This document shows, piece after piece, positions 17,771 through 60,218 of a stretch of DNA of 64,000 nucleotides (position 1 is the first letter of the stretch; the number at the start of each line of letters is the position of its first letter). A program made the position numbers and the translations under genes. The notes beneath the pieces were generated by a model. It saw only the letters and a list, made by a program, of their open reading frames with translations, did not search any database and was not told where the DNA came from. Where the stretch lies: positions 514,857 through 578,856 of the forward strand of contig CAVPHA010000021.1 of the NCBI GenBank assembly GCA_963704125.1, in the 5' to 3' direction. Origin of the DNA: an uncultured Acidobacteriota bacterium (GTDB lineage Bacteria > Acidobacteriota > Thermoanaerobaculia > Thermoanaerobaculales > Sulfomarinibacteraceae).

Positions 17771-17862
17771 CATGGCAGCCCGTGGCGGCGTCCGTGGCAG
17801 CGTCCGTGGCGGCGGCCTCGGTCACTGTTCAGGCAACGCGCCGTCGGGATCGGGATCGGGTC
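17771..17862. repeat. direct repeat H1 (12-mer 'ccgtggcNgcgN' units plus a unique tail)
   Basis: Aligns with 18528..18626 with 5 substitutions plus one fewer 12-mer unit. The two copies bracket the 4HB cassette. Confidence 0.85.
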
Positions 17863-18527
17863 CGGACTCGACCCAACAGCGGATTGAGGAATCGAGAGGT
17901 CGGCCGGGGAGGATTCGGTTTTCTTGGATCGAAGACCTTGGTTCTCCTGATGATTCAGGAGATACCTGTGCGACTCCTGTATGAATTGTCTGGGAGGGTT
18001 TTGCACCCTCCCGATGAGGTTATCGGGGTGAGGAAGGCTAAGGGTGGAGGAGACGCCAGGTCATGGCACGAACATCATCGAAGAGTTGGAGCGTGGTTTC
18101 GCTGCGGGACGGGTCGATTGCACCAGCCCCCATGAGGAGACGAAGATGAATGTCAACTTCCTTTGCTGACCCATACGCGATGCGGTATAGGTGCATGCGG
18201 TCTCTTCCAAAACGACCGGCGCCTTCGGCGAGATTCGCCGGTACCGAGGAAGCGGATCGAATCACCTGATCGGCGATGGGCTTGAGCGGAGCGGGCACCC
18301 GCATCACGAGGGAGATGGCGATGCCGGCTGCGGTGGTGGCTTTCTCGAGGGCGTAGAATCGGGTCGTTTGCTGTTGCTCGTGCATGGTTACCTCCGGGTT
18401 GTTCATGTCCTTCCCCCAGCCGCTGGGATGGCTCGTGTCAAGGGTCGCCTTCGAGGCGACTTGTCTTGCCCTTGACTCGAGCCATCCCAGCGGCTACACG
18501 CGCTTTCATGAACAACCCGGGGGTGAC
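17863..18527 (-). mobile_element. candidate four-helix-bundle gene cassette, copy 1 (mobility is hypothetical)
   Basis: Bounded by direct repeats H1/H2. Its internal modules (3' hairpins, gene, upstream palindrome) are shared with 59179..59798. Confidence 0.35.
18038..18406 (-). CDS. four-helix-bundle protein (TIGR02436 / 23S rRNA intervening-sequence protein family, Avd-like)
   Basis: 'QVIRSASSVPANLAEGAGRFGRDRMHLYRIAYGSAKEVDIHLRLL' is the family signature. SD 'gggggaagga' precedes the ATG. Confidence 0.85.
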   Translation of the reverse strand: MNNPEVTMHEQQQTTRFYALEKATTAAGIAISLVMRVPAPLKPIADQVIRSASSVPANLAEGAGRFGRDRMHLYRIAYGSAKEVDIHLRLLMGAGAIDPSRSETTLQLFDDVRAMTWRLLHP

Positions 18528-18530
18528 CAT
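18384..18530. promoter_or_regulatory. ~147-bp imperfect palindrome covering the 5' end and upstream region of 4HB copy 1
   Basis: Arms match 22/24 ('atggttacctccgggttgttcatg'), 18/18 ('agccgctgggatggctcg') and 8/8 ('gtcaaggg'). The core is 'tcgcc-ttcga-ggcga'. The proximal arm contains TTGACA. Confidence 0.6.
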
Positions 18531-18626
18531 GCCGTGGCAGCGACCGTGGCAGCGACCGTGGCAGCGACCGTGGCGGCGGCCTCGGTCACTGTTCAGGCAG
18601 CGCGCCGTCGGGATCGGGATCAGGTC
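18528..18626. repeat. direct repeat H2 (partner of H1)
   Basis: See H1. Confidence 0.85.
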
Positions 18627-18740
18627 GAGGCCGCGGATTCGGAAACGGCCGCGGCTACGGACTCGGATACGGTCACGGATACGGATACGGATACGGATAC
18701 GGAAACGGCCACGGCCACGGCTACGGTTTCGGACGTCGCC
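18627..18740. repeat. (NNNCGG)n hexamer-periodic tract
   Basis: 'gcggattcggaaacggccgcggctacggactcggatacggtcacggatacggatacggatacggatacggaaacggccacggccacggctacggtttcgg': CGG every 6 nt for ~19 units. Confidence 0.9.
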
Positions 18741-21494: not shown

Positions 21495-21570
21495 TGGTGG
21501 AGCCGAAGGGGATCGAACCCTCGACTTCAGCATTGCGAACGCTGCGCTCTCCCAACTGAGCTACGGCCCC
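21495..21570 (-). tRNA. tRNA-Ala (anticodon CGC), CCA encoded
   Basis: The reverse complement folds as a cloverleaf: acceptor GGGGCCG/CGGCUCC with the G3:U70 Ala identity pair, D-arm GCUC/GAGC, anticodon loop UUCGCAA, T-arm GAGGGUUCGAUCCCC. Length 76 nt. Confidence 0.95.
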
Positions 21571-37810: not shown

Positions 37811-37965
37811 ATTATGAATTTTGAATTATGAATTTTGAATTACATCACACCATCACACCATCGCAACGTCGCAACGTCGCAACGCCGCACCTGCACACAG
37901 ACGCAGACGCTATCGGGGCTTATGCGATGAAAATTAAGAATTGAGAATTCAAAATCGAGAATTTC
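37811..37965. repeat. AT-rich heptamer-built palindrome enclosing 8-mer tandem repeats
   Basis: Left arm 'attatgaattttgaattatgaattttgaatt'. Centre '(atcacacc)2 atcgcaac (gtcgcaac)2 gccgcacc'. Right arm 'aattaagaattgagaattcaaaatcgagaatt'. Confidence 0.85.
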
Positions 37966-37966
37966 T

Positions 37967-40213
37967 TCAGTCGATGGCCATGCGGGTGTCGGCGCAGACG
38001 AAGAGAACATCCTGGAGTTCGGGGTGGCGCTGCAGCAGTTCGGCGCCCTTGGAGTTCAACCGCGGCATGGTGAATCCGAGGATGACGAGATCGGCCGTCG
38101 TCGAGTGCTCGGCCACCAGTTGACCGAAGTCGACCTTGGCGTCGGTCGGGAAGATCCGGACGTTGCGCGGGCTGACCGGAATCCGTCCGGTGGCCAGCGT
38201 CTCCTCGATCTTGGCTTCTTCGCCCGCGGCGCGTTCCTCGGGAGCGGCGACCAGGATCTCGATCTCGGCATCGCTCCAATCCGGGGTGGCCGAGGAGGAT
38301 GTAGGCGAGGAGGATCATCAGGCTCGCGTTCTTGTAGTCGTGCCAGGTGAGCCAGATGTGGATCCGATCGCGGTTGCCGAAGAAGACGTCGGAGTGGCGC
38401 AGCACCAGAATGTCCATCTCGGTCGCGGCGGCGAAGAGACTGCCGTCGTAGACCTCCTGGAGGACCTCGGGCGGGTCGTGTTTGGAAAACTCGAAGAGCA
38501 CGACGTTGTTCTCCATGCCCGAGATCCCGGGCACCTGGAGGCTCTGGGCGAGGGCCGAGCTCATCGACGGGCTGATGATGGTGTCGACGAAGACTCCACC
38601 GGCCCGCTCGTGGGCCAGTTTGACGAGCTTCTTCATCGTCTTCTTGGATTCGCGGTAGTTCTCGGGATCGAGGAGCCCGGGGATGAAGTGGAGATAGGTC
38701 CCGACGGCGTGGCGGTGGCACAACCAGGCCATCAGCTGGAGCGGCGCCGCACGATCGAAGGTGCGGCCGTCGACCATGATGATGCTCGGCCGCCACTGGT
38801 CCGCCGTCGACTCGGCTCCGACGCTCTGGAGGCCGATCTGCATCTGCCGGGTGGCCTGGACCATCACCGCCCGGAAAATCGCCCCGAGATCGTCGCCGTC
38901 GGCGGTCCTCGAGGCTCGAATGAAACGGTAGAGCAGAGCGATGGCGATGATCGCCAGCAGCGCGAAGACCGGGTCCATCTGGAACATCAGCAGCAGACAC
39001 CCGACGGCGCCGAGAAGGCTCAGGTACCAGCGCGAGTGGAAGGTCGGACGGTAGCTCGGCCGGGCCGCGAAGTGCTCGAGGAAGGAGATGGCGCAGAGGG
39101 ATCCGTAGGTGACCATGAAGAACATGGAGATGATCCGGGCGACGAAGTCGACGTTGCCCGCGGCGACGAAGGTGACGGCGATGACGCCGGTAATGATGGT
39201 GGCGTTGCGCGGTTCGTTGGCGCCGCCGGTGCCGCGGCCGAGGAAATCGGTGATGGATCGCCAGCGAACCACCCGGTCGTTGGCGATGGCCTGGAGCGTC
39301 CGCGGGGCCACCAGCACCGAACCCACGGCCGACGAGATGGTGGCGCAGGCGAGACCGATGGGGATGATCGGACCCCAGAGGGCGATTCGGCCCATGATGA
39401 GCTGATCCGCGGCCATCGCGTCGGGCGACGCCGAGGCGGCGAGCTTGACGACGACGAGGACGTAGACCACCATGCCGGCGAGGGTCGCGGACAGCGTGCC
39501 GAGGGGGATCGATTTTCGCGGATTGGCGAGGTCGCCGGAGAGCCCGACGCCGGCGGTCATCCCGGTGAAGGCCGGGAAGACGATGGCGAAGACCACGAAG
39601 AAACCGTCGGCATCGGCGACCTTCGTCAGCAGCGAGATGCCGTGCGGCGCGCCCTCCATGGGGGGGCCGAGAAAGAAGAGCAGCAGCGCAGACGGCGAGC
39701 ACGGCGGCGACGAGGTAGAGCCCGACGACTCCGGCGTCGGCGCCGCGCATGATCATCAGAGCCAGCAGCAGCACGACGAACGGCAGCGAGACCATCCGCG
39801 GGTCGAAGACCAACCCGGTCGAGGCCCTCGAGCCAGGGCGCCAGCGGCTGGAAGGCCTCGGCGAAGGCGATGGAGTAGAAGGCGACCGAGATCGACTGCG
39901 AGAGATAGAGCGCGACGCCGATGGTCGCGCCGATGGTGGTGCCGAAGGAGCGCGAGATGATGAAGTACTCGCCGCCGCCCTCGACCCGGCGGTTGGTGGC
40001 GATCTCGGAGATGGCCAGTGCGGTGGGGATGGTGACGGCGTGGCCGATGAGGATGATGAGGCAGGCCCCGAGCAGGCCGACGTTCGCGACCGCGTAGCCG
40101 AAGCGCAGGAAGAGGACCGCGCCGAGGATGGTGCTGATGGCGGCGAGGAAGACCGGCGCGGTGCCGAAGCCGTGCCCGGAGGATCGTGGTTGCGGTTGGT
40201 GGCCATGGCGCAA
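37967..40213 (-). CDS. SLC12/APC-superfamily cation-chloride cotransporter-like protein (frameshifts near 38270 and 39650-39760)
   Basis: TTG start after SD 'gggagag'. The N-terminal permease part is in ORFs 39626..40213, 38056..40506 and 37920..39659. The C-terminal cytoplasmic domain ends '...VLFVCADTRMAID' at 37967. Confidence 0.65.
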
Positions 40214-40240
40214 TCATACTCTCCCGTCCTGGCCGCGTCC

Positions 40241-40270
40241 GCGGCTGCGGTCTCGGTCTCGGTTACGGGA
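40241..40270. repeat. short (NNNCGG)n tract 5' of R1
   Basis: 'gcggctgcggtctcggtctcggttacggg'. Confidence 0.7.
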
Positions 40271-40277
40271 CCCGCAG

Positions 40278-40546
40278 CACCGGCCTTCCGGGACGCTGTG
40301 ACGCGATGGCGTCCCAGCGCCCCAGCGTCGCACCATCGGCGTGGTCGCTCCTGGGATGATTGGGGGGCTGCGACCACGCCGATGGTACGCCGGCGGCCTC
40401 CCTCTGAGCCGGGAGAGCAGACCGCATCGCGCCTCCCGGGGGAGCCCGGTATGACATTGTGCGGGGCGTGACGCGGTGCCGGGAGGTCGATCGGGCACAA
40501 TGTCATACCCCGACATCCCGAGGAGGGCGGATCCTGCGTGCCCGGT
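40278..40546. repeat. R element copy 1 (solo): ~270-nt hairpin-rich repeat, candidate structured RNA or DNA element
   Basis: Helix A 40333..40347/40371..40385 (15-16 bp perfect). Helix B 40448..40462/40495..40509 (15 bp perfect). Homologous to 43859.., 44713.., 58904.. and 59799... Confidence 0.85.
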
Positions 40547-40599
40547 GATGGCCGCTTGACCCCAATGCACCGCGGGTCGGTAACCAGGCTCCGCAGATT

Positions 40600-40768
40600 G
40601 GTCGTTCATTGACACGGCTTGCTCTCTTAACGTCTGACGAAAAGTGTGAATAGCTTGACACAAAATCTGATAACAACGTACTAAAAATATTGATTTCTGA
40701 GACTTGACAATTAATCACGCAGGTATTACATTGTGCTTGCGTGTGAAATTGATAAGGAGGTACTCAAA
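40600..40768 (+). promoter_or_regulatory. AT-rich hsp20 upstream region with three TTGACA boxes
   Basis: TTGACA at 40609, 40655 and 40704. Possible -10 boxes are TACTAA (40679) and TACATT (40727). SD 'aaggagg' lies 7 nt before the ATG. Confidence 0.4.
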
Positions 40769-42294: not shown

Positions 42295-42871
42295 CTAGAG
42301 ATTGCTCTCCACGAACTCCCAGTTCACCCAGCCCCAGAAATCCTGGAGGTACTTGGCGCGAGCGTTCCGGAAGTCGATGTAGTAGGCGTGCTCCCAGACG
42401 TCGCACGTCAGCAGCGGGGTGGCGCCATCCCGCATGGGGTTTTCGGCGTTGGCGGTGGTGGTGATGGCGAGTGAACCGTCAGGGTTCTTGACCAGCCACG
42501 CCCAACCCGAGCCGAACCGGCCCACGCCGGCTTTGTTGAACGCCTCCTTGAATGCAGTCGAAGCCGCCAAAGGCCTCGCTGAGCCGGGCTTCGATCGCGG
42601 CGCTCGGATTGCTTCCGCCGCCGCCCTTCAGGCAGTTCCAGTAGAACGTGTGGTTCCAAACCTGCGCCGCGTTGTTGAAGACGCCTCCGTCGGTGGTCTT
42701 GATGAGTTCCTCGAGGGTGGCGCCGTCGCGGGGAGTGCCGGCCGTCAGCTTGTTGAGGTTGTCGACATAGGCTTTGTGGTGTTTGCCGTGGTGGTAGTCG
42801 AGGGTCTCGGCGGACAGGAAGGGTTCGAGGTCGTTGGGGCCAAACGGAAGCCGCGGGAGTTCATATGCCAT
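42295..42871 (-). CDS. sodB: Fe-type superoxide dismutase (frameshift near 42560)
   Basis: 'LDYHHGKHH', '[17 protein letters not shown]' and '[13 protein letters not shown]'. Joined from ORFs 42479..43861 (part) and 42295..42570. Confidence 0.9.
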
Positions 42872-42950: not shown

Positions 42951-43811
42951 TTAAGACTGTGTCTCGAACAAGGAGGGAGTGCGATCCCTGATCTCGCGTG
43001 CCTTTTCAAGCCCGCCCGAGAGCGCGTCCGGCACATCAGCGGCCGGACAGATGGCATTGAACCCGCACCAGGCGCAGAGGACGCCGGGCCGCGGTTCGAA
43101 CTCGGAGGCGGAGTTGACCTCCACGGCAAGCTCGTGAAATCGGTCGAGGAGCTCTCGTGCCCGCGCTGCATCGACCGACTGCCACCGGGTGCTCTCGTGC
43201 CGGAGGTAGTGATATCCGGCAAGGGCTTCTTCTTCGCCGTTGTGCCGCATTGCGCAGGCCGCGTAGAGCGGCGCCTGGAGCCCTTCCGAGAATTCGGATG
43301 GGTCGCCTTCCTTTTTTGAAGTCTTGTAGTCGACGACAAAGAGCCGGCCGCTCTCGGTCCGCCCGATCCTATCGGCGAAACCGGTGAAGACGATCTCATC
43401 GGATAGGGTGTGGTTGAGTCGCTGCTCGAGGGCGATGGTTTCGGAACGATCCTTGCTGAAGGTGCCGCGGTGGAACCGTTCGAGCATTTCACGGCCGGTG
43501 ACGAGATAGCCGTCGGCGTGATCGCCGCAGCGGATGACGGTGATCTCCTCGTCGAGTCCGGCAGTCCATCGGTCGGCCAACAACTGGAGGGCGGCCTCGA
43601 GAGGAGGGCTCTCGCTCTTCTCGCGCTCGCTGTACAGCCACTCGAGGACATCGTGCACGATGCTGCCAAGATAGGACTCGATGGAACGAAAGACCTCTTT
43701 GAAGCCCTTGAGGTAGCGATAGCGATAGCGCAACGGACACTGGTGGTAGGTCTTGACCCGGGAGAAGGAGAACTGATTTCGCGGGGTCGGGGCGTGTCCG
43801 GTTTCAGGCAT
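42951..43811 (-). CDS. PD-(D/E)XK nuclease family protein (RecB/Cas4-like, with cysteine cluster)
   Basis: N-terminal 'FSFSRVKTYHQCPLRYRYRYL', 'VVDYKTSKK' and C-terminal 'CAWCGFNAICP'. Confidence 0.7.
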   Translation of the reverse strand: MPETGHAPTPRNQFSFSRVKTYHQCPLRYRYRYLKGFKEVFRSIESYLGSIVHDVLEWLYSEREKSESPPLEAALQLLADRWTAGLDEEITVIRCGDHADGYLVTGREMLERFHRGTFSKDRSETIALEQRLNHTLSDEIVFTGFADRIGRTESGRLFVVDYKTSKKEGDPSEFSEGLQAPLYAACAMRHNGEEEALAGYHYLRHESTRWQSVDAARARELLDRFHELAVEVNSASEFEPRPGVLCAWCGFNAICPAADVPDALSGGLEKAREIRDRTPSLFETQS

Positions 43812-43858
43812 CCGTGGAGTGTAGCGTACGCGCGGTGCGGGTCACCGGTTTCTCGCAA

Positions 43859-44085
43859 CACCGGCCTTCTGGGCGCTGGGACGCTCTGGCGCAGCGCCCC
43901 AGCGTCGCCCCATCGGCGTGGTCGCTCGGGTGGTGGATTTGAGGGGCTGCGACCACGCCGATGGGACGCCGGCGGCTCCTTCGTTGGGAGAGCCAGGCGA
44001 GGCGCGTCCGGAGCCCGGACGCCAGGCGCAGCTGTCGCGTTGCCGGTGGGTGGACTGGCACCGGCCCGGCACCCGAGGGAGGTCC
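43859..44085. repeat. R element copy 2 (divergent; long helix B lost)
   Basis: Shares 'caccggccttctggg...ccccagcgtcgccccatcggcgtggtcg...cgaccacgccgatggg acgccggcgg' with the other copies. Confidence 0.7.
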
Positions 44086-44112
44086 TTTCCCGCGTGACCT
44101 CGAGGATTGATT

Positions 44113-44479
44113 CGGATGCAGCAGCCGCCAGGTCATCGCGCGGACGTCGTCGAAGAGTTGGATTGCGGTTGTGGCCCGTGTGGCATCGACGGCGTTTGCT
44201 TCAGCGAGGAGACGCAGGTGGGTGTCGACCTCTTTCGCTGAGCCGTAGGCGATGCGCCAGTGGTGCATGCGGTGGCGGCCTGATCGGCCGTGACCTTCGG
44301 AGAGATTGGCGGGCACCGACGAAGCGGAACGAATCACCTGATCGGCGAGACTCTTCAGAGGAGCCGGCACCCGTAAGACGAGAGCGATTGCGCATGCCGG
44401 CGGCTTCGAGAGCTTTGTGGTGGGCGATGAGGCCGGTGGATGGTAGGGCGTTGCGCATGATCACCTCCTGGTTGTTCAT
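44113..44479 (-). pseudogene. four-helix-bundle protein, copy 2 (one frameshift near 44395; stop codon missing, reads through R2)
   Basis: 'MNNQEVIM...' then '...PAPLKSLADQVIRSASSVPANLSEGHGRSGRHRMHHWRIAYGSAKEVDTHLRLL...AMTWRLLHP' with no stop until 43804. Confidence 0.6.
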
Positions 44480-44482
44480 GCC

Positions 44483-44570
44483 CCCTCCACCAGCCGCTGA
44501 AATGGCCGAGGTCAAGGGTCGCCGTCGAGGGCGATGCATTCGCTCTTGACCCTTGACATCGGCCACGTCT
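44483..44570. promoter_or_regulatory. palindrome upstream of 4HB copy 2
   Basis: 'agccgctgaaatggccgaggtcaaggg-tcgccgtcgagggcga-...-ccttgacatcggcca': same design as at 18418.. and 59740... Confidence 0.5.
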
Positions 44571-44712
44571 CTAGAGCGGCAGGACGTGCGTGAACATCGG
44601 GTCAGGAGACCACACCGGACGCTGACCGCGGCCCGCTGACGCTGTCGCCTGCGCAGTTGTCTGCCGCAGTCCCGGACGCTGTCCCGGAGACTGCCCCTGC
44701 GGTTTCCCGCAT

Positions 44713-44974
44713 CACCGGCCTTCTGGGACGATGGAACGCGGTGGCTTCCCATCGCCCCAGCGTCGCCCGAGCAGCGTGGTCGTTTAGGTGGAGAATTTGA
44801 GGGCTTCGACCACGCTGCTCGGGCGCCGGCGGCCTGCCTCTGAGCCGGGAGAAAAGACCGCATCGTGCCTCCCGGGGGAGCCCGGTATGACATTGTGCGG
44901 GAGGCACCGCGGTGCCGGGAGGTCGATGGGGCACAATGTCAAACCCACGCCCGAGGGAGGCTCCAGTCCCTCGG
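44713..44974. repeat. R element copy 3
   Basis: Helix A 44766..44782/44807..44823 (17 bp perfect, three compensated pairs versus R1). Helix B 'ggtatgacattgtgc/gcacaatgtcaaacc'. Confidence 0.85.
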
Positions 44975-44980
44975 ACCCGG

Positions 44981-45080
44981 AGCGGCCTCGGTTTCGGTTG
45001 CCGGATGCTGATGCTGCCGCTGTCCCGGACGCTGTCCCGGACGCTGCCGCTGCCGCTGTCGCTGTCGCGGCGGTGCCGCT
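44981..45080. repeat. 6-/12-mer periodic tract 3' of R3
   Basis: '...cggtttcggttgccggatgctgatgctgccgct(gtcccggacgct)2gccgctgccgctgtcgctgtcgcggcgg'. Confidence 0.8.
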
Positions 45081-45226
45081 GAACATCCTCATGACTGTAA
45101 AGGCGAAGATCCGCAGGGTCGCTACGCGGAATCTCAACGGATTGGTCGCGGGCGTAAACGACCCGCCTACAGCTCTGAATCACCCAGCGTCATCCTGCAC
45201 GGTTGTGCCGGGCGCTGTCCCGGCCG

Positions 45227-45573
45227 CTAGAGGACCTCCAGGATCTTCTCCGTCGGTCGACCGAGGACGGTGCCCTGGGACCAACGACGATGGGGCGTTC
45301 GATGAGTCGCGGATGCGCGGCCATGGCGGCGACGAGCTCGGCACGGCTCAGGGTGTTGTCGGCGAGACCGAGTTCCTTGTACTCCTTCTCCTTCTTCCGC
45401 ATGAGCTTCGCGGGGATCCATCCCGAGCTGCGAGAGCAGATTCTCGATGGTGGCCGCATCCGGCGGTGACTCGAGGTATTTGATGATCTCGGGCTCGATG
45501 CCCTGCTCGCGCAGCAACTGCAGCGCCTGCCTGGACTTCGATCAACCGGGGTTGTGATAGATGACGACGCTCA
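45227..45573 (-). CDS. arsC: ArsC/Spx-family arsenate reductase with in-frame TGA at the catalytic Cys codon (candidate selenocysteine); two frameshifts near 45275 and 45420
   Basis: SD 'ggaggt' then ATG. 'MSVVIYHNPG-TGA-SKSRQALQLLREQGIEPEIIKYLE...HPRLIERPIVV...GRPTEKILEVL' parallels E. coli ArsC 'YHNPACGTSR...INRPIVV'. Confidence 0.7.
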
Positions 45574-46623: not shown

Positions 46624-47382
46624 ATGGATCTCCTTCAACTGGTCGCCGATCTCGATGAAATCCTCGAGGCAGACGCCGTGCGGGACTACTGCCCGAACGG
46701 GTTGCAGGTCGAGGGGTCGGCAGAGGTGCGGAGGGTCGTCACAGCGGTGTCGGCATCGAGGGCGCTCTTCACCCGGGCCGTCGACCGCGAGGCCGATGCC
46801 ATCATCGTTCACCACGGCGTCTTGTGGAACGCCAGCGAACCGCCGCGACTGGTGGGGTCCTTTCGCGAGCGGATCCGAATCCTCCTGGCCAACGACGTAT
46901 CGTTGATCGCCTACCATCTGCCCCTCGATCGGCACATGGAGCTGGGCAACGCCGCCCAGCTCGGTCTTCGACTCGGGCTGAGCGAACTCGAGCCCTTTGC
47001 CGAGCACCAGGGGGTTTCGGCCGGCGTCTGCGGGGTTTTCCGGGAACCGGTCGATGCCGACGAGTTCTTCGCCGCCGTGGCCGAGGCCACCGATCGTGAA
47101 CCGCAGATCTTCCAGGGCAACCGGCGAGAGATCTCATCGGTGGGGATCGTGACCGGCGCCGCCGAGCGCGAGTACCACCAGGCGGTGGCGGCGGGGCTCG
47201 ACGCCTACATCACCGGTGAGGCGACCGAGTGGGTGCTGCACCAGGCCGCCGAGGACGGCGTCCACTTCGTCGCCGCCGGGCACTATGCGACGGAGCGCTT
47301 CGGCGTGCGCGCCGTCGGGCGCTGGCTCGCCGAGCGCCACGATCTCGAGGTCGAGTTCATCGAGATGCCCAACCCGGTCTGA
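46624..47382 (+). CDS. Nif3-like dinuclear metal centre protein (YbgI family)
   Basis: 'DYCPNGLQVEG', 'DAIIVHHG', 'AYHLPLD' and 'AGHYATERFG'. Confidence 0.85.
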   Translation: MDLLQLVADLDEILEADAVRDYCPNGLQVEGSAEVRRVVTAVSASRALFTRAVDREADAIIVHHGVLWNASEPPRLVGSFRERIRILLANDVSLIAYHLPLDRHMELGNAAQLGLRLGLSELEPFAEHQGVSAGVCGVFREPVDADEFFAAVAEATDREPQIFQGNRREISSVGIVTGAAEREYHQAVAAGLDAYITGEATEWVLHQAAEDGVHFVAAGHYATERFGVRAVGRWLAERHDLEVEFIEMPNPV

Positions 47383-47402
47383 GGCGGCTCCGACGGACCG
47401 AA

Positions 47403-47530
47403 CCGCAAAGGCGCAAAGAACGCCAAGCATCACATTCGCAAGTCAGGGGTTTGAGAGCGGCGTGCCGCCCCAGAACCCCTGCTCGCATGCGATGATTGCG
47501 ATGTCTCTTTGCGACCTTAGCGTCGCTACG
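47403..47530. repeat. 8-mer ('CGCAAAGG'-type) repeat palindrome with a central GC hairpin, between convergent genes
   Basis: Left arm 'ccgcaaaggcgcaaagaacgccaagcatcacattcgca'. Centre 'caggggtt...aacccctg'. Right arm 'tgcgatgattgcgatgtctctttgcgaccttagcg'. Confidence 0.7.
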
Positions 47531-47647
47531 TAGGCTGGGCCTGGGCCCGAGCTTCAGATCCTCCCGGTGTGTTGACCCGCTCCAACGAGAGTCAGACAGC
47601 CTCGAAGGTCCGCCGAGTCAGCTTATGATATGCGATGCCTGGCGTTC

Positions 47648-48890
47648 CTAGCGTCCTTGCGGTTCAACTTTCGACGCCTGGTCGATCACGCACCGCCAGA
47701 CGCGCTCGACTCGCTCGAAGACCGCGGACCAGGTGAATGGCTCCAGCGCCGCGGATTGGTCCCCCAGCGGGGGCGCCTCGAGGGCGCGCCGGAGCCCGGC
47801 TTCGAGCCGGTCGACAAAGGCCGGGAGCTCGTCCTCGACCGGGGTGTCGACCCCGGCCATGGCGGGTGGTTCGACGAGCTCGAGGGCGGCGCCGAGCCGC
47901 GGCGCGAGCTCGTCGGCGACTCCGGGGAGAGCGGTGGCCACGAGCCGGCAGCCGCAGGCCAGGGCTTCGACAAGCACCAAGGGCAACCCCTCGAAGAAGG
48001 AGGGCAGGACGCAAACGGTCGACCGACGCATCAGATCGGAGAGCTCGGTCTGTGCCAGCTGACCGTGAAGCACGATCTTCGGCGCCATGGCGGCCATCCG
48101 CTCGCGGAGTGACTCCGCCTCGGCGCCCGATCCGTCGCCTGCGACGTGAAGTCGGAGATCGGGATGAGTTGGGCGTCAGTCGCTCGAACGCATCGAGGAG
48201 CCACGGCAGACCCTTGGCGGCGCTGTACTTGCCGATGTAGAGCAGCGCCGGCGCCGGGTTCGTCTCGCGTCCTCGTGCGTGGAAGAGATCGTCGCGGTAG
48301 CCCGCCCCGACAACGTGGATCCGGGTCTCGGGGACACCCAGGATCCGAGCCAGGTCGTCGGCGTGGCCCCGGTGCAGCACGACAAAGGCGTCGTTGCGGG
48401 CGCAACCCGAGCGGGCCTCGTCGGCAAGTTTGGGGACGAGCGCCATCTGGCGCAGCCCGGTGGCGTGGCACTGGGTCACCACCGGGGTGTCGGGGGCGAT
48501 GTCCTTGAGCAGCGACGACATGAGCCAGATGTGGTGGGAGTGGATGATGTCGGGATTGAAGGCGCCGATGACGGATTGCAGGTGGTCGCGCCAGCCGGAT
48601 CGGTAGCACTCGACCTCCCGTTCGGTCATGGCGCTGAAGACGGTGCTCGGGTAGGGCATGACATCGCTCATCCCGGGCACGGGAAACGGCAGCCGGCTCC
48701 CGCCGAAGACGAGGGGGTGGATGCGCTCGGCGCCGAGGCCGCCGATCTCGGGTGTGAGGTCGTCCTTCGGCACCCCGACCACCACCCGCTGCTCCCAACC
48801 CACGGCGGCGGCGTGTCGCACCATGGCGTCGAGAGTGATTCCGCTGCCGGTCAGCGACGGTCGTTGGGAAAGTAGTTGAAGCACCTTCAT
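47648..48890 (-). CDS. GT4-family glycosyltransferase (frameshifts near 48100-48170)
   Basis: The N-terminal GT-B domain is in ORF 47664..48890. The C-terminus 'VLPSFFEGLPLVLVEALACG' (E-x7-E region) is in ORF 47648..48097. Confidence 0.8.
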
Positions 48891-48958
48891 GGCCGCGTCA
48901 TCGTAACGTGGAATCCCACCGCGGTGATGGAAGGTTGTGTAGCGGGGAGGGACCGGTC

Positions 48959-49561
48959 ATGGAGACGATTCGCGACCAACTGCTCGATCTCTGGTTCGGC
49001 ACCAGCGACGACGACGCCGACGTCGGTAGGAGGCAATCCTCGCTGTGGTGGGGCTCGAGCGCCGAGACCGACGATCTGCTCGGCGCCCGGTTCGGTCAGG
49101 CGGCCACGGCCGCCGCCGCGGGCATCCTCGATCACTGGAGCGGATCACCGCGGGGCCGATTGGCACTGATCCTCCTTCTCGACCAGCTGCCGCGGGTGAT
49201 CCACCGGGGAGCCCCGGGCGCGTTCGCCGAGGATGCCAAGGCCCGCCGGTTGGCGGATCAGGGCCTCGCCTCCGGCGCCGATGGTCTGCTGCGGCCCATC
49301 GAGCGGGTCTTTTTCTACCTGCCCTTCGAGCACTCGGAGGATCCGGCGGATCAGCAGCGCAGCGTCGGACTGTTCTCCCAACTTGCGGACTCGGTTCCCG
49401 AAAAGTGGAAAGAGACCTTTGCTCTCTATCTCGATTTCGCCCTCCGGCACCAGGCGATCATCGACCGGTTCGGCCGTTTTCCGCACCGCAACGCCATCCT
49501 CGGCCGCGAATCGACGGCGGAGGAGATCGAGTTCCTCAAGCAGCCGGGATCGGGGTTCTAG
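48959..49561 (+). CDS. DUF924-family protein
   Basis: 'LILLLDQLPR...FFYLPFEHSE...IIDRFGRFPHRNAILGRESTAEE'. Confidence 0.75.
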   Translation: METIRDQLLDLWFGTSDDDADVGRRQSSLWWGSSAETDDLLGARFGQAATAAAAGILDHWSGSPRGRLALILLLDQLPRVIHRGAPGAFAEDAKARRLADQGLASGADGLLRPIERVFFYLPFEHSEDPADQQRSVGLFSQLADSVPEKWKETFALYLDFALRHQAIIDRFGRFPHRNAILGRESTAEEIEFLKQPGSGF

Positions 49562-49609
49562 CCTGTCCCCGTTTGCCCTCGGGTGATCGATGAAGGTTAT
49601 ACTCACCAC

Positions 49610-50361
49610 ATGACTGATAGAACCACCGAAACCCAGACCTGCTCCCTCTGCGACGGCACCGGCTGGATCCTCGTCGAGGAGAACGGGATCGAGATGGCGA
49701 GACGCTGCGAGTGCGCCGAAGCCCGCGTGCGCGAGCGGTCGGTCTCGCGGGCGGCGATTCCGGATCGCTACCGGCACTGCACCCTCGACAACTTCGATCT
49801 GTGGAACTCTGAAGATCCGACCCTCGGCAAGGCCCTGCGTCTGGTTCAGGAGTTTGTCGACCTGTATCCGAATGTCGACAAGGGGCTGGTGCTCATGGGA
49901 CCGGTGGGCACCGGCAAGACCCACCTCGCCGTGGCCGCCCTGCAGCAGATCCTGCGGGAAAAGCGGCCGCCGGTGCGTGGTCGATTCGCGGACTTCACCT
50001 CACTGGTGCTCGAAATCCAGATGACCTTCGACGGTTCGGGGAGCAGCCGACGAGATTCTGCGAGCCCCTCGTGGACTGCGATCTCCTCGTGCTCGACGAG
50101 CTCGGCGCCGGCAAGACCAGCCCATGGGTGATGGACCTGCTCTACTACCTGGTCAACACCCGGTACCTCGAAAACCGGCTGACCGTCTTCACCACGAACT
50201 ACTCCGATTTTCCCAAGAAGACGGGCGAAGAGAGCCTCACCGACCGCGTGTCCCAGCGGATCCGCTCCCGGCTGTGGGAGATGTGCAGCCGGATCGAGCT
50301 TCGCGGGCGCGACTTTCGCGCCGAACGTCTGGCCTCGCGCGAAGGGGGACTGTCTCAGTGA
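49610..50361 (+). CDS. DnaC/IstB-like AAA+ ATPase with N-terminal zinc-binding motif (frameshift near 50050)
   Basis: 'CSLCDGTGW...CEC', Walker A 'GPVGTGKTH' and Walker B 'LLVLDELG'. The C-terminus is in ORF 50071..50361. Confidence 0.7.
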
Positions 50362-52457
50362 AGTTTCCCTGGCCCCTCCTGCTCGCCGTGGCGGCAGGCT
50401 GTGCGACAAGCGGCACCACGCAACCGACACCGATTTCGAGAGCGACGGCCACCCCGACTCCCGCAGCCGCCGCACCGACGCCGACGCCGATCCCAACCCC
50501 GGCGCCGATGGGACCGGTGCCATCCGGTGTCGTTGCGACGGCCGGGACTCAGCCGATCCGGGTGCTCCTGCACACCACCAAGGGAGCCGTGACCCTGCCG
50601 CAACCGGGCCGCGCCTACCGGGCCGAAACCGGGGACGAGGCGGTCTGGTTGTGGGGTCCTCTGGAGATCACCGCGGCGGGGTCGATGGCCTGGCAGGTGG
50701 GCGCGTGGTCGAGTTCCGAGGCCGCCGCCTCGGTGGTTGACGGCCTCGCCCGGCAGCTCGGAGACGGCGCCCGGGTGTGGCAGGAACCCGCGAGCGGCGG
50801 CCTCGTCCGGGTCCGGGTGAGTTGGCCGGGCGGCGAACCCGCCGACGCCAAGGCGCAGCTCGTGGCGGCGGGTTTTGCCGACGCCTTTCGAGTGTCGGGC
50901 GCCGGGACCGTTCGGATCACCGGCGCCGCGGGGGTTTTCGAGAGCGCCTCGGAGATCGTGCTCACCCCGGCCGGTGATTGGCCGACCGCCGTCGGCGGCC
51001 GGCGCTATCGCGGCCGGTTCCGGACCAGGAGCAGTGGCGAGGAGCTGGTGTTCATCAACGAGCTGGCCATGGAGGAGTACCTCCGCGGCGTCGTGCCGGT
51101 GGAAATGGGTCCGTCACAGTTCCCCGAGCTCGAGGCCCTCAAGGCCCAGGCGGTGGCGGCCAGGACCTACGCCGTGGCCCATCTCGGCGACCACGAGAAC
51201 GAGGGTTGGGACATCTGCGCGACCCCGGCATGCCAGGCCTATTGGGGCGCCGGCGCCGAGCACTCGCTGTCGGATCGGGCGGTTCGGGAGACCGCCGGGC
51301 TCATCGCCATCTATGACGGCCAACCCATCGACGCCATGTACACCTCGACCTGTGGTGGTCATACCGAAGATTCCGCCGAGCTCTTCTCGGGTCGCGGCAC
51401 CCCCTATCTCACGGGCGTCGTCTGCGCCTGGGACCGCGCCATCCTGCTCGCCGGAGAGGGATCGGCGACGCCGATCGGTGATGTGCGGGCATTCCGGCGT
51501 CGATTGGCCCGACGCGCCCTCGGGCTGGCTGAGGGCGAGATCGATCCCGTCGATCTCCTGCCGTCGGTGGCCGCGCTCTGCGACGGCGAGGCCCTTCCGC
51601 TGCCCGGTGAACCCGGTTTGACGGAGTGGATCGATGCGCTGTTCGCCGCGGCCGGGCTCGACGAATCGAGCCCCCTGGTCACCGACGTGGGGGCCGGTCG
51701 GCTGCTCGAGCTCGCCGATCTCTTCGAGATCCCTCTGCCGCCGACCACCCCGAGTTCCTGGCGGGACGGGTGGCACCTCGAGGCGGTTTCGGCGGTGCTC
51801 GAGATCCAGGAGGTGATTCTCAGCGACAGCGGCGATCTCGTGCCCCATCCCGATGGCGCCGCCATCTACCCGCGGCGGGCCGATCAATCGGAGGCGTTGC
51901 CGCAGCCCCTACCGCTGGTCTGGCGGTGGGGTGGAAGCTACAGCGGCGCTTCGGGACTCCGGGTGCTTCCCGGCACCACCCTCGAGCGCTATCGTCTGGG
52001 AGACCGGATCCTGGCCCTGGTGGTGGTCCAATCGGCGGGTGGCGGAGAGGCCGATCGCCGGTCGGCCTGGCGGAGCTGGAGACGCGAGCGGAGCTGGAAT
52101 CGAGCTCGAGGATGACCCTCGGCGAACCCGGATCTCGAGAGGCTGGAGATCGTTCGCCGAGGCGCGATCCGGCCGGGTCGTGAGCTGGCCGTCATCGACG
52201 GCAACGGCGGCCGCCGGCTGGTGAAGGGATTCGATGTCCGTCGGGTGCTGGATCTCCCGGAGACCCTCTTCGAGATGCAGATCCGGACCCTTCCCGACGG
52301 CCAACGAACGGCCCATTTCCTCGGTCGTGGGTGGGGGCACGGGGTCGGTCTGTGTCAGAACGGCGCCTACGGTCTCGCCCGAGCCGGGATGACCTACGAT
52401 GCGATTCTGACTCACTACTACACCGGTATCGAGATTGCCGAATGGAGCCCGGAGTAG
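50358..52457 (+). CDS. SpoIID/LytB-domain protein (frameshifts near 52090-52220)
   Basis: Lipobox 'LLAVAAGC'. 'LEEYLRGVVPVEMG...EALKAQAVAARTYA...YTSTCGGHTED'. The C-terminus 'GWGHGVGLCQNGA' is in ORF 52221..52457. Confidence 0.8.
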
Positions 52458-52513
52458 ATTCCCGGTGGCGTAGAATGTGCGCGCCGGTCGATCGAATTGG
52501 AGTGGAGGTGTCC

Positions 52514-58630: not shown

Positions 58631-58815
58631 TGAGAGTGGGCGAGGTGCAGATTGATGGTGCTGGGAGTGGTTTGGCGGCCAGGTTCTCAGGACTGTAGGC
58701 GGGGCCTTCAGGCCCCGCGACCCTCCCGCTGACGTTCGGTGTGGCGATTCGGCGGCTCTTCGCTTCGAGGGTCGTGACGATGTTCGGGTCGGCGGGGCGG
58801 TTGACGGCGTGGGTT

Positions 58816-58890
58816 GCGGATTCGGCCTCGGCCTCGGTCACGGCTACGGACGCGGACTTCGGTCTCGGCCTCGGTTACGGTTTCGGTTCT
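58816..58890. repeat. (NNNCGG)n tract 5' of R4
   Basis: 'gcggattcggcctcggcctcggtcacggctacggacgcggacttcggtctcggcctcggttacggtttcggtt'. Confidence 0.9.
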
Positions 58891-58903
58891 TGATTCTCTC
58901 GTC

Positions 58904-59178
58904 TCCGGCCTTCTGGGGCGCTTGGACGCCCTGGCGTCCAAGCGCCCCAGCGTCGCACCATCGGCGTGGTCGTGCATGGGTGGATTGGAGGGCGGCGACC
59001 ACGCCGATGGCGCGCCGGCGGCCTACCTCTGCGCCGGAACAGAAGACCGCATCGCGCTTCCCGGGGAGTGCCCGGCACGCAATTGTGCGCGGCGTGCCGC
59101 GGTGCCGGATGGTTGATGGGGCACAATTACGTGCACGTCCCAATGAACGCGGATTCCGCGTGCCCTGGTCGGCATCGG
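58904..59178. repeat. R element copy 4
   Basis: First hairpin 'tggggcgcttggacgc/gcgtccaagcgcccca'. Helix A 'accatcggcgtggtcg/cgaccacgccgatgg'. Helix B 59075..59088/59121..59134. Positions 58946..59178 are duplicated at 59799..60139. Confidence 0.9.
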
Positions 59179-59798
59179 TCCGGAAATGGAGGCGGAGTGA
59201 TCCCAACTGGGAATTGAGGAATCGAGAAGTCAGCCGACAACCCACGGATTTCGTTGGATCGAAGACGTGACCCTCCTGATGACTCAGGAGATACCTGTGC
59301 ATTTCCGGTATGGGTTGTAGGGGAGGGTTTACACCCTCCCGATGCGATCCTAACCATGGAGAAGCCGCCAGGTCATGGCGCGGACGTCGTCGAAGAGCTG
59401 GAGCGAGGTATCGGTACGCGGAGCGTCGATTGCACCTGCGCCGACGAGGAGTCGCAGGTGGGTGTCGACCTCCTTGGCCGAACCGTAGGCGATGCGGCAA
59501 TGGTGAATGCGGTCTCTTCCTGACCGTCCAGCACCTTCGGCGATATTGGCAGGAACCGATGAGGCGGAGCGAATCACCTGATCTGCAATGGGTTTGAGTG
59601 GTGCTGGAACCCGCATGACGAGGGAGATCGCGATGCCGGCTGCGGTGGTCGCTTTCTCAAGGGCGTCGAATCGGGTCAGTTGCTGTTCGTCGTGCATGGT
59701 CACCTCCGGGTTGTTCATGCACTCCCAACCAGCCGCTGAGATGACCCATGTCAAGGGTCGCCTCCGAGGCGATTCGTCATGCCCTTGACATGGGTCAT
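59179..59798 (-). mobile_element. candidate four-helix-bundle gene cassette, copy 3 (mobility is hypothetical)
   Basis: Lies exactly between the duplicated R segments. Shares 'attgaggaatcgaga...', hairpin 'tctcctga..tcaggaga', hairpin 'gggagggtttacaccctccc', the gene and the upstream palindrome with copy 1. Confidence 0.35.
59350..59718 (-). CDS. four-helix-bundle protein (TIGR02436 / 23S-IVS protein family, Avd-like), copy 3
   Basis: 'MNNPEVTMHDEQQ...QVIRSASSVPANIAEGAGRSGRDRIHHCRIAYGSAKEVDTHLRLL...AMTWRLLHG'. SD 'gggag'. Very similar by eye to copy 1. Confidence 0.85.
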   Translation of the reverse strand: MNNPEVTMHDEQQLTRFDALEKATTAAGIAISLVMRVPAPLKPIADQVIRSASSVPANIAEGAGRSGRDRIHHCRIAYGSAKEVDTHLRLLVGAGAIDAPRTDTSLQLFDDVRAMTWRLLHG

Positions 59799-59799
59799 C
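59740..59799. promoter_or_regulatory. palindrome upstream of 4HB copy 3
   Basis: 'gatgacccatgtcaaggg-tcgcctccgaggcga-ttcgtcatg-cccttgacatgggtcatc': 18-bp perfect arms. TTGACA lies in the gene-proximal arm. Confidence 0.6.
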
Positions 59800-60139
59800 C
59801 CAGCGTCGCACCATCGGCGTGGTCGTGCATGGGTGGTTGCTAGTGCGCCTTGCGCACCGCGACCCACCCTCGCCTGGCTGCGGTCAGAGCCGTCCTCGCT
59901 TCGCGACGACGGCCTGACTCGCTCGCCAGCCGAGCGCGGGTTGGAAGGGCGGCGACCACGCCGATGGCGCGCCGGCGGCCTACCTCTGCGCCGGGAACAG
60001 AAGACCGCATCGCGCTTCCCGTGGAGTGCCCGGCAACGCAATTGTGCGCAGCGCGCAGCGGTGCCGGATGGCTGATGAGGCACAATTACGTGCCCACGTC
60101 CCAATGAACGCGGATTCCGCGTGCCCTGGTCGGGATCGG
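59799..60139. repeat. R element copy 5 (lacks the first hairpin; carries a ~104-bp insertion in the helix-A loop, 59837..59940)
   Basis: Aligns with 58946..59178 with about 9 substitutions and 4 small indels by eye, plus the insertion. Confidence 0.9.
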
Positions 60140-60218
60140 GCACGGATTCGGAGGAGGCGACGGCCACGGCCACGGATACGGAAACGGTCGCGGATTCGGA
60201 TACGGAAACGGCCCCGGT
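60140..60218. repeat. (NNNCGG)n tract 3' of R5
   Basis: 'cacggattcggaggaggcgacggccacggccacggatacggaaacggtcgcggattcggatacggaaacggccccgg'. Confidence 0.9.

Follow-up and report, generated by a model that had tools for sequence, protein, structure and literature searches.

The question raised by this locus is what kind of element a repeated, hairpin-forming sequence, here called R, represents in the genome of an uncultured Acidobacteriota bacterium. The first-pass annotation of the 64-kb window (the whole stretch of DNA analysed here) had described five copies, and all five are indeed there. A core motif, GCCGCCGGCG-N8-GCGTGGTCG, has exactly 5 minus-strand matches against 0.28 expected from shuffles, and a second R motif matches 4 copies against 0.00 expected. 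Searches with nhmmer and with a covariance model return the identical five copies, and neither finds a sixth in the 64 kb. All are in minus-strand orientation and measure ~280-290 nt each. The span first proposed, 40241-40546, located the element correctly and misjudged its size, the element being slightly larger, at ~290 nt.

The copies are less uniform than they had been taken to be. R1 (40263..40553, minus strand) is full length (nhmmer 283.9 bits; covariance model 267 bits, E 3e-82), and an AA_permease/SLC12-like gene (Pfam) begins with TTG (40213) 56 nt past its 3' end. R2 (43844..44109, minus strand; nhmmer 103 bits, covariance model 143.5 bits) retains an intact 3' domain and has a divergent 5' domain without a normal helix B; 17 nt separate it from the stop codon of a four-helix-bundle (4HB) gene upstream, designated 4HB copy 2, and 37 nt from the ATG of a PD-(D/E)XK nuclease gene downstream. 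R3 (44698..44988, minus strand), R4 (58888..59175, minus strand) and R5 (59797..60134, minus strand) were each found by both searches. The first two of these are full length, R3 carrying three compensated helix A pairs relative to R1 and R4 the GCACGYAATTGTGC variant of helix B. R4 lies 186 nt 3' of 4HB copy 3. In R5 the loop of helix A is enlarged by a hairpin insertion of 106 nt (59835-59940), and the copy breaks off on its 3' side at model position ~231, at which the leader palindrome of the adjacent 4HB unit starts.

Read on the minus strand, R is predicted to fold as a 5' domain formed by helix B and a 3' three-way junction of a closing stem, P1, with helix A and hairpin C. In R1, helix B (40448..40509, minus strand) pairs arms 40495-40509 and 40448-40462 around a conserved loop of ~32 nt. 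Helix A (40326..40392, minus strand), of ~18 bp, joins arms 40373-40392 and 40326-40345 and also has a conserved loop, and hairpin C (40288..40325, minus strand) joins arms 40316-40325 and 40288-40297. P1 (40283..40397, minus strand), in which GCC at 40395-40397 pairs with GGC at 40283-40285, encloses helices A and C. The helix sequences originally reported proved correct when the letters were re-read. Helix A is CCATCGGCGTGGTCG/CGACCACGCCGATGG in R1, R2, R4 and R5 and CGAGCAGCGTGGTCG/CGACCACGCTGCTCG in R3; R1 and R3 share GGTATGACATTGTGC/GCACAATGTCATACC as helix B, and R4 and R5 share GCACGCAATTGTGC/GCACAATTACGTGC, with a plus-strand C.A in the latter two that becomes G.U when read on the minus strand.

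The proposal that these helices are upheld by compensatory substitution was borne out in two independent alignments, A2, with 70 copies, and A5, with 89 sequences that are mostly metagenome copies. In A2, 97.4% of cells are paired (33-50% with slid partners) and two-sided changes occur in 22 of 45 pairs, the observed values being reached in 0 of 500 shuffles. In A5, the corresponding figures are 95.3% and 30 of 45 pairs, with 343 compensated cells. Across both sets, helices B, A and C are 95-97% paired as opposed to 30-50% in slid controls. The outer part of helix B is hypervariable across the R family and keeps its pairing; its pair 49/98, for example, is AU in 50 copies, CG in 44 and GC in 18. 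Helix A behaves similarly at pairs 168/219 (CG 98, GC 34) and 172/215 (GC 96, AU 45), and hairpin C has two-sided changes in 6-7 of its 10 pairs. P1 is invariant, and covariation therefore speaks neither for nor against it. An all-against-all scan for two-sided covariation recovered B, A and C only, with no pseudoknots or extra helices, and RNAalifold gave no reliable extra helices on 5' sub-blocks, where the hairpins CGCGG-AAAA-CCGCG and CCCC-AUC-GGGG are plausible and weakly supported. Recent substitutions private to single copies occur 2.2-fold less often in stems, where 67% of them leave the pairing intact, source lineages outside the sample being possible for such changes. These data support R as a structured single-stranded nucleic-acid element kept by compensatory substitution.

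The strand on which R folds can be read from the tolerated mismatches. In the R alignment, G.U and U.G pairs number 142 against 22 A.C and C.A, and the folding strand is therefore the minus strand of the window, in keeping with an earlier hint at a minus-strand transcript. Some pairs are mostly G.U (pair 208/268 is GU in 38 of 70 copies), and predominantly G.U pairs are typical of RNA. Selection would accordingly be expected to act on the fold in its single-stranded sense form. Furthermore, R is non-coding, as its unconserved reading frames had led the annotation to suppose: a protein-coding R is ruled out by the absence of 3-periodicity in its variation (p=0.45) and by deletion runs that are not multiples of 3 in 170 of 191 cases. 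Small Gly-X ORFs antisense to the neighbouring hexamer tracts likewise showed no consistent open frame. Thus R combines the general marks of a structured RNA, namely covariation, an excess of G.U over A.C and the lack of a coding signal. Rfam 15 at gathering thresholds found only a tRNA in the window (21498-21570), with no R family and no rRNA. A permissive search (E<=10) of R1, R4/R5 and a six-copy array gave hairpin noise far below threshold. The annotation had assigned R to no RNA family, and R appears to be a new one.

R is present hundreds of times in related uncultured Acidobacteriota, and Acidobacteriota MAGs and metagenomes yielded 203 copies. Most are single copies, dozens of them scattered through each genome; R also occurs truncated and in tandem arrays of up to six copies with non-coding spacers of 150-220 nt. 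Truncated and deletion forms recur at several loci, with truncation points clustering at a module boundary, ~107-109. Copies truncated at the 5' end outnumber those truncated at the 3' end by 30 to 11, an excess that we do not count as evidence because of ascertainment bias, both search patterns lying in the 3' half. No R was found in phage, plasmid or viral collections, three viral pattern matches being due to chance.

Many copies belong to mosaic clusters that also contain (CCGNNN)n tracts and GTAG-headed, REP-like palindromes, and the simple-repeat tracts adjoining R share its orientation. In the window, on the minus strand, a (CCGNNN)5 tract abuts the 3' end of R1 (40239..40268), tracts of 7 and 5 units abut the 3' end of R4 (58814..58886) and tracts of 4 and 10 units the 5' end of R5 (60128..60217). 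R3 has one type of 12-nt-period tract on both flanks, a period-6/12 tract of GTCCGGGACAGC type (repeat families D12 and D14; 44661..44700, minus strand) on its 3' side and a partner at 45002-45065 on its 5' side. The period-6 tracts around R copies create spurious direct repeats. Whole clusters come and go at orthologous sites while the flanking genes remain unchanged. At locus L096, a cluster of ~2.07 kb ordered mini-R, REPIN, R, R, 4HB and microsatellite occupies a position where the syntenic spacer in the window is 33 nt, and the orthologous R clusters of L015 and L094 differ by ~1.7 kb. This polymorphism is of whole clusters, no clean empty/filled pair having been recovered for a solo R.

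The only gene family that recurs beside R is PF05635, which we take to be an Avd-related family and which is represented here by small four-helix-bundle (4HB) genes, annotated as 23S rRNA intervening-sequence proteins. Of 137 flanking ORFs in one census and 150 in a second, independent one, 5 and 7 belong to it, the remaining neighbours among these 287 ORFs being diverse housekeeping genes. In 16 of 17 cases the 4HB gene is followed by R on the same strand, 12-276 nt downstream, a frequency that is conditional on R since the loci were chosen for containing it. In all 16 linked cases R folds on the strand that codes for the neighbouring 4HB protein, and gaps as short as 12-35 nt leave no room for a separate promoter. 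A scan for sigma-70-like promoters and intrinsic terminators found none attached to any R copy in the window.

Two 4HB genes in the window precede R. Copy 3 (59353..59721, minus strand) is intact, encodes 123 aa and matches PF05635 (23S_rRNA_IVP; Pfam E 2.7e-16) and PDB 2gsc (1e-4); Pfam E values for the window 4HB genes are 1.7e-14 and 2.7e-16. Copy 2 (44116..44480, minus strand) has its N-terminal part in another frame, either through a frameshift or through an assembly indel. Copy 1 (18047..18406, minus strand) is the sole one of the 17 without a downstream R. Its unit lies between direct repeats of ~80 nt (18545-18630 and 17785-17865), with a (CCGNNN)17 tract (18631..18732, minus strand) right after a stop codon upstream of it and a shorter (CCGNNN)n tract at 17842-17865. 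A long palindrome, read directly from the sequence, precedes copy 3 (59722..59800, minus strand), its 3' arm extending over the first codons of the ORF, the start codon included; equivalents lie ahead of the other two genes at ~44481-44580 and 18407-18530. A palindrome that includes the 4HB start codon is thus found in all three window copies and at L096 and L158. The 4HB subfamily is large, with more than 3600 close homologues, the top 120 at >=79% identity. Literature searches returned no description of an RNA partner for PF05635 proteins or of R itself.

Judging from sequence, we would give an even chance to the reading of R as the non-coding RNA part of a selfish cassette whose gene is 4HB, accompanied by derivatives that have lost the ORF. 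A complete unit would comprise, on one strand, a palindrome that sequesters the start codon, the 4HB ORF as the cassette's only gene, and R. From this arrangement it would follow that R is transcribed together with 4HB and makes up the 3' portion of its mRNA. The fold may then serve as a platform for binding or processing, for example by a basic 4HB pentamer or by RNase III acting on the 15-18-bp helices, and we infer that 4HB and R interact and that the cassette colonises new loci. The ORF-less, 5'-less short and mini forms of R would be non-autonomous derivatives accumulated in intergenic DNA, and local multiplication into tandem arrays may proceed through unequal recombination. Since solo copies occur in every orientation to host genes, many of them may lack transcription. 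Against the cassette count the lack of sigma-70-like promoters and intrinsic terminators at the window copies, the failure to find an enzyme able to move R near its loci, and the fact that one of the three 4HB genes in the window has no R.

Two other readings start from the position of R and can be given very little credence. The first-pass annotation had pointed to R lying directly 5' of minus-strand genes, and R1, R2, R3 and R5 do precede such genes at 56, 37, ~220 and ~76 nt, which, with the size of the structured element and its conserved unpaired blocks, would suit a cis-regulatory leader (riboswitch-like or an attenuator) of the next minus-strand gene. Among 64 clusters, however, all four classes of neighbour orientation occur (19, 19, 15 and 11), and in 38 the gene downstream lies on the other strand. 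The neighbours are unrelated housekeeping genes without a common function and in every orientation, and R is therefore not their leader; the consistent relation is that of 4HB upstream of R. Tandem copies with non-coding spacers, the lack of an expression platform (a terminator or a stem sequestering an SD) at the window copies, and clusters that come and go beside unchanged genes also speak against a leader. Equally remote is an attC-like recombination site with integron-like R-4HB-R arrays. Like integron attC/CALIN, R is a strand-specific folded repeat, as are attC bottom strands, and its R-ORF-R layouts and short-spacer tandem arrays resemble arrays of short cassettes. An attC site is an imperfect palindrome of 57-141 nt with core sites RYYYAAC and GTTRRRY, in an array next to an intI tyrosine recombinase gene. 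R, in contrast, has neither core site (R' or R'') on either consensus strand, is 280 nt long (2-5 times larger) with three helices instead of a single imperfect hairpin, and keeps invariant blocks of primary sequence where attC sites conserve structure only. No integron integrase or tyrosine recombinase family recurs among the flanking ORFs, and dozens of dispersed single copies per genome are unlike a cassette array.

More serious, though still an unlikely explanation in our estimation, is that R is a DNA-level selfish repeat, a giant REP/BIME- or MITE-like element, with 4HB a mere passenger of the mosaic clusters; the hairpins would act in single-stranded DNA at replication forks, where they would be recognised by a transposase or recombinase encoded in trans, or simply tolerated. 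At 54 of 68 loci R is oriented in line with replication-type GC skew (p=1e-6), irrespective of gene orientation, which points to a process at the level of DNA or replication and tells against the cassette. The GTAG palindromes in the spacers, a hallmark of repeats driven by single-stranded-DNA transposases, do so as well. Like REP/BIME/REPIN and ERIC/IRU sequences, which are often transcribed passively, R is high-copy, intergenic and hairpin-forming, and occurs in mosaic clusters, together with microsatellites and REP/REPIN-like palindromes, that vary between relatives. It shows no orientation preference to host genes (19 of 64 clusters are in convergent spacers), truncated or deleted derivatives are common, promoters and terminators were not found, and G.T is the best-tolerated mismatch in DNA hairpins too. 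The comparisons with REP, MITE and attC that had been suggested nevertheless all fail on defining features. REP/REPIN sequences are imperfect palindromes of 20-40 nt with a 5' GTAG head and a cognate Y1 (HUH) RAYT transposase; unlike these, or ERIC at 127 nt, R is ~280-290 nt long, contains a junction and three helices that covary, is strand-specific and tied to a protein gene, and carries GTAG only internally and on the antisense strand, with none in the sense consensus. There are no MITE-like TIRs, the longest exact terminal inverted match averaging 5.1 nt against 5.3 nt in shuffles. No RAYT lies nearby, and no enzyme able to move R was found near R loci: a crude regular-expression search of 1.5 Mb gave no HUH/Y1 motif, and neither this nor any other transposase recurs among the 287 neighbours. 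In IS200/IS605-type elements the active strand is on the lagging-strand template, whereas the G.T-tolerant strand of R is C-rich and, by the usual convention, not that template. A junction of several helices in 280 nt, with unpaired blocks that never vary and positions that are mostly G.U, looks like RNA, and 16/16 co-orientation with 4HB at 12-35 nt would be unexpected for an unrelated passenger. Appreciably less probable again is a retro-mobile element for which R would serve as template or primer RNA, an Avd-like 4HB protein recruiting a reverse transcriptase encoded elsewhere and R cDNA integrating intergenically to leave ORF-less, 5'-truncated copies with slippage-generated hexamer tracts. 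The order and strand of 4HB and R mirror those of avd and TR in DGRs, where the gene for a small, basic four-helix bundle directly precedes a co-oriented non-coding segment whose RNA must fold; PF05635 is related to Avd and is listed in a DGR context (PMC10053308). The folding strand is the transcript-sense strand, and co-oriented simple-repeat tracts and the confounded excess of 5' truncations would also fit. Unlike in a DGR, there is no VR or target gene, R differs by compensatory changes, and variation is not adenine-specific (A takes part in only 50% of mismatches between nearest neighbours, and each of the six mismatch classes is frequent). A crude regular-expression search of 1.5 Mb of R loci found no reverse transcriptase motif, no RVT family recurs among the 287 neighbours, truncations cluster at ~107-109 and are not spread as in abortive reverse transcription, and the arrays are explained by unequal recombination. 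A dedicated ribonucleoprotein (RNP) of a stand-alone, Avd-like PF05635 protein and R as its cognate ~280-nt RNA, spreading R, and on occasion the gene, by way of an RNA intermediate and a reverse transcriptase supplied in trans, is to be regarded with the same degree of doubt.

The cassette that we favour has partial counterparts elsewhere. PF05635 ORFs sit inside the intervening sequences (IVSs) of 23S rRNA; these are called selfish, and RNase III cuts them out at a long stem (PMC4990558). Like the IVSs of Leptospira and Coxiella, which are regarded as selfish and as spread horizontally, the units described here combine a PF05635 ORF with a long stem and with long perfect helices suited to RNase III (PMC4990558). 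They differ in lying between ordinary protein-coding genes, with no rRNA in the window, in having a palindrome wholly 5' of the ORF instead of enclosing it, and in the structured R that follows the ORF and has many ORF-less copies, an IVS module for which we found no precedent in the literature. An insertion in helix 25 or 45 of a 23S rRNA gene is accordingly rejected. R also recalls HEARO/omegaRNA of IscB and the TnpB reRNA of IS200/IS605, large structured RNAs tied to one protein gene with ORF-less copies scattered about. Unlike these, it has no Rfam match and no transposon ends, lies 3' of its gene, and has as its partner a 120-aa helical bundle without a nuclease domain.

To our knowledge, the very widespread PF05635 family (S23p, "four helix bundle protein", Avd-like) has had no role assigned to it outside DGRs since its discovery in an rRNA IVS in 1993. 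A covarying, RNA-like module of ~280 nt directly 3' of the gene is a concrete candidate partner for these proteins, and its many ORF-less copies amount to a large natural mutagenesis set. Hypotheses of binding, processing and retro-mobility are thereby now open to experiment. Should the doubtful RNP prove true, it would be a bacterial SINE-like system, with (CCGNNN)n tracts as integration scars or targets, and would give the 23S rRNA intervening-sequence protein family its first function beyond DGRs. Irrespective of mechanism, R is an unusually large and complex bacterial intergenic repeat with a strand-specific fold and a replication-strand orientation bias, and lends itself to the study of how structured repeats spread and are maintained. 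In the annotation of Acidobacteriota MAGs, R arrays could pass for CRISPR-like or coding sequence.

Our analysis firmly establishes the ~290-nt repeat R as a new family of large, strand-specific, covarying non-coding elements. The family is tied to PF05635 genes and has the behavior of a repeat, being dispersed and forming arrays. Exactly five copies, sharing one orientation, are present in the window: R1 (40263-40553), R2 (43844-44109), R3 (44698-44988), R4 (58888-59175) and R5 (59797-60134), all on the minus strand. The motif GCCGCCGGCG-N8-GCGTGGTCG has five minus-strand matches where shuffles predict 0.28, a second motif, placed in the opposite half of R, matches four copies where 0.00 are predicted, and nhmmer and the covariance model both return the same five copies and no others in 64 kb. 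The five-copy element described in the first-pass annotation is thus upheld, and the helix sequences quoted there are correct. R2 is divergent in its 5' domain; in R5 the 3' end is missing and a 106-nt hairpin is inserted into the loop of helix A (59835-59940). Of this hairpin, 85 nt are 100% identical to an R copy in MAG CAVWAW01 (locus L032, 4523-4607), a genome otherwise ~75-84% identical to that of the window; this suggests either a conserved expanded-helix subfamily of R or a recent exchange.

For 70 full-length copies with a median pairwise identity of 75% (range 53-98%; alignment A2), RNAalifold gives a 5' helix B, a three-base closing stem P1, an ~18-bp helix A and a hairpin C, the last three being predicted to form a three-way junction. 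In this alignment the paired fraction of cells is 97.4% and falls to 33-50% if partners are shifted by 1-3 columns; two-sided changes occur in 22 of 45 pairs (178 cells), and none of 500 column shuffles matched the observed pairing values. A further 89 mostly metagenomic copies (alignment A5), aligned by the covariance model built from A2 and so fitted in a way that somewhat favors structure, had 95.3% of cells paired and 30 of 45 pairs compensated (343 cells), again with no match in 500 shuffles. These counts bear out the initial claim that the helices are maintained by compensatory changes. An all-against-all search for two-sided covariation in 148 copies (alignment A6) recovered helices B, A and C only, with no pseudoknot; P1 is invariant across copies, so that covariation carries no information on it, and the small 5' hairpins are weakly supported. 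Because G.U/U.G cells exceed A.C/C.A cells (142 versus 22), with a few pairs in A2 being mostly G.U, the folding strand is the minus strand of the window. Given the position of R relative to GC skew, this excess would be the opposite of the outcome of strand-biased cytosine deamination. Substitutions specific to one copy, a result to which unsampled source lineages may add, hit stems 2.2-fold less often than unpaired columns, and pairing is kept by two-thirds of the stem substitutions.

R is non-coding. Entropy along the columns lacks 3-periodicity (p=0.45), the length of 170 of 191 deletion runs is not divisible by three and no reading frame is open in most copies, in agreement with the earlier remark that frames are not conserved. 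Nor does R match any Rfam family at curated or permissive thresholds. No consensus promoter or terminator was found accompanying the window copies.

Beyond the window, a scan of representative genomes with a 19-base core motif, which yielded many chance matches besides multi-hit loci, located such loci in the Microflora-Danica Acidobacteriota MAGs CAVWAW01, CAWGLT01 and CAVQJV01, in a Thermoanaerobaculales MAG, in Acidobacteria bacterium Ww181 and in one short Gemmatimonadetes-binned contig. Within these genomes R is spread over many contigs, often as tandem arrays, among them a six-copy array with a period of 430-500 nt (L028). Two invariant 3' motifs scanned against metagenomes matched 120 loci, 83 of which contain R. 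The total collection amounts to 203 non-overlapping copies, including 136 full-length, 30 5'-truncated and 11 3'-truncated copies and 7 internal fragments; two reduced forms recur across several loci, a short one covering model positions ~104-283 and a mini one that joins 105-160 to 233-282. Searches of phage, plasmid and viral-contig collections turned up no copy.

The sole Pfam family recurring beside R is PF05635 (23S_rRNA_IVP), the four-helix-bundle (4HB) family, with 5 of 137 and 7 of 150 ORFs in two independent neighbor censuses. In all fetched DNA, R lies downstream of 16 of the 17 PF05635 genes on the same strand, at 12-35 nt in seven cases, at 186-276 nt in eight, where a conserved ~240-nt spacer intervenes, and at 1,278 nt in the one remaining case. 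In the window, R4 comes after 4HB copy 3 (59353-59721) and R2 after the frameshifted copy 2 (44116-44480); copy 1 (18047-18406) is without R. A long imperfect palindrome precedes each 4HB ORF (window 18407-18530, 44481-44580 and 59722-59800; L096 3300-3420; L158 30-180), whose 3' arm spans the start codon and roughly the first eight codons, with an inverted copy of ATGAACAACCCGGAGGTGACCATG upstream. Such a palindrome would sequester the ribosome-binding region, and it is reminiscent of the stems on which RNase III acts in rRNA intervening sequences. The 23S rRNA intervening sequences harbor PF05635 ORFs and are viewed as selfish elements that RNase III cuts out at a long stem (PMC4990558). Structural matches of the 4HB protein are 2gsc and 2rld, both pentameric four-helix bundles, and its subfamily is extremely abundant, with >3600 homologues (E<=1e-10), the best 120 all at least 79% identical. 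The R-less unit at ~18 kb lies between two direct repeats of ~80 nt (17785-17865 and 18545-18630; GATCCCGATCCCGACGGCGCG.TGCCTGAACAGTGACCGAGGCCGCCGCCACGG...), which look like a duplication arising from insertion of the unit or its recombination into the site. Directly after 4HB copy 2 and R2 lies a PD-(D/E)XK nuclease gene (42951-43811; PDDEXK_1, Cas4/RecB-like, with a C-terminal Cys cluster), an adjacency not repeated in other R loci; PF05635 genes have been noted beside Cas4/Cas6 nucleases in cas loci (PMC3936711).

With about even confidence, we prefer to read R as the RNA module of a selfish 4HB cassette. R would be co-transcribed with the 4HB gene, its RNA would provide a platform for protein binding or RNase-III-type processing, and ORF-less copies would be non-autonomous derivatives. 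The consistent position of R behind 4HB genes and the strand-specific fold speak for this cassette. It is possible, if rather unlikely, that R is instead a DNA-level REP-like repeat with 4HB as a mere fellow passenger; the orientation of R along GC skew and the REP/REPIN-like palindromes in its clusters would suit such a repeat, the 16 of 17 4HB genes followed by R would not. R itself is no REP, having no GTAG head and ten times the length, and no MITE, its terminal inverted matches averaging 5.1 nt versus 5.3 nt in shuffles. A retro-mobile, Avd-like RNP appears improbable: PF05635 is linked to the Avd of DGRs (PMC10053308), and R was rejected as a DGR repeat, A being involved in only 50% of mismatches.

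We give very little credence to an attC-like recombination site, for which the strand-specific fold might be cited, as the core sites are absent; the REP- or attC-type comparison proposed in the first-pass annotation ended with R failing the defining features of both. Equally remote is a cis-regulatory leader, suggested by the position of window copies 5' of minus-strand genes. That position proved not to be meaningful: in 64 clusters with two scorable neighbors the four orientation classes number 19, 19, 15 and 11, and the neighbors are diverse housekeeping genes.

R also has an apparent replication-strand bias. After masking of R and 1 kb to either side, R-sense coincides with the C-rich strand at 54 of 68 loci, the window among them (79%; p=1.1e-6). 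Coding bases are evenly split over the strands relative to R (252 versus 232 kb) and coding-strand skew is nearly nil (-0.015), so gene orientation does not explain the bias. Period-6 tracts distant from R share the tendency (16 of 23). The bias may reflect selection that keeps the more stable hairpin strand, the one tolerant of G.T, off the lagging-strand template, or else a replication-coupled insertion step.

R clusters are mosaic, combining R with period-6 tracts, REP/REPIN-like palindromes, other hairpin modules and the 4HB unit, and the intergenic regions of R-bearing genomes seem to be BIME-like mosaics. Degenerate (CCGNNN)n tracts in the window lie almost only beside R/4HB units (0.18 in shuffles), always on the R-sense strand (40239-40268, 44661-44700, 45002-45065, 58814-58886 and 60128-60217; further 18631-18732 and 17842-17865); another is in L096 (3010-3290). 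Over 793 kb their density is ~12-fold higher within 300 nt of R, and 41 of 50 share its orientation. Each has its own unit (GTATCC, GTGACC, GCGGAC and others), one in L096 being a perfect microsatellite, (CGGTCA)~45; none is coding, and an insertion target, a slippage scar and a rut-like C-rich RNA are candidate origins. Other repeat families in the clusters include a hairpin module (CGTCGACAGCCAGGATGGCTGTCGCTACAC...GTGTAGCGATAGGCTTCCAGCCTGTCGACG) and GTAG-headed REP/REPIN-like palindromes (GCGCTACAA...TTGTAGCGC; GTAGCGCCCACGTCTCGTGGGCGCTA), occurring in the spacers of L091, L096, L032, L051 and L073 and in the 3' flanks of R in L009, L015, L033 and L094. L096 is syntenic with window 46750-52573; its cluster of ~2.07 kb (mini-R, REPIN, R, hairpin module, R, 4HB, (CGGTCA)~45) corresponds in the window to an orthologous spacer of 33 nt that separates the DUF924 gene from the one following it. 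The orthologous clusters L015 and L094 differ by ~1.7 kb, comprising extra R units and one 4HB unit, as expected from unequal recombination.

The window, of 65% G+C, encodes an OMP beta-barrel protein and is colinear with contigs of the R-bearing MAGs at 74-84% nucleotide identity. Its source is therefore a diderm of Acidobacteriota type related to them and no actinobacterium. Several of its genes are split or truncated: an AA_permease/SLC12-like gene (37920-40213) is in two frames near 39626-39752, an ArsC gene (45190-45517) is split over two frames, Fe/Mn SOD (42295-42627) retains the C-terminal domain only, and 4HB copy 2 (44116-44480) has its N-terminus in a different frame. Either these genes are pseudogenes or they reflect the indel errors to which long-read MAG assemblies are prone, and the same caution applies to indels inside R copies. 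A 36-nt inverted repeat in the NIF3-GT4 intergenic region (47400-47435/47630-47665; 83% complementary, arms 194 nt apart) is unrelated to R and has elsewhere only a weak 35-nt match (L208). Between R1 and a divergent HSP20 gene lies an unusually AT-rich stretch of ~170 nt (40560-40732) containing the sole sigma-70-like promoter match of the region (TTGACA-17-TACATT, plus strand, 40704-40732), presumably the HSP20 promoter.
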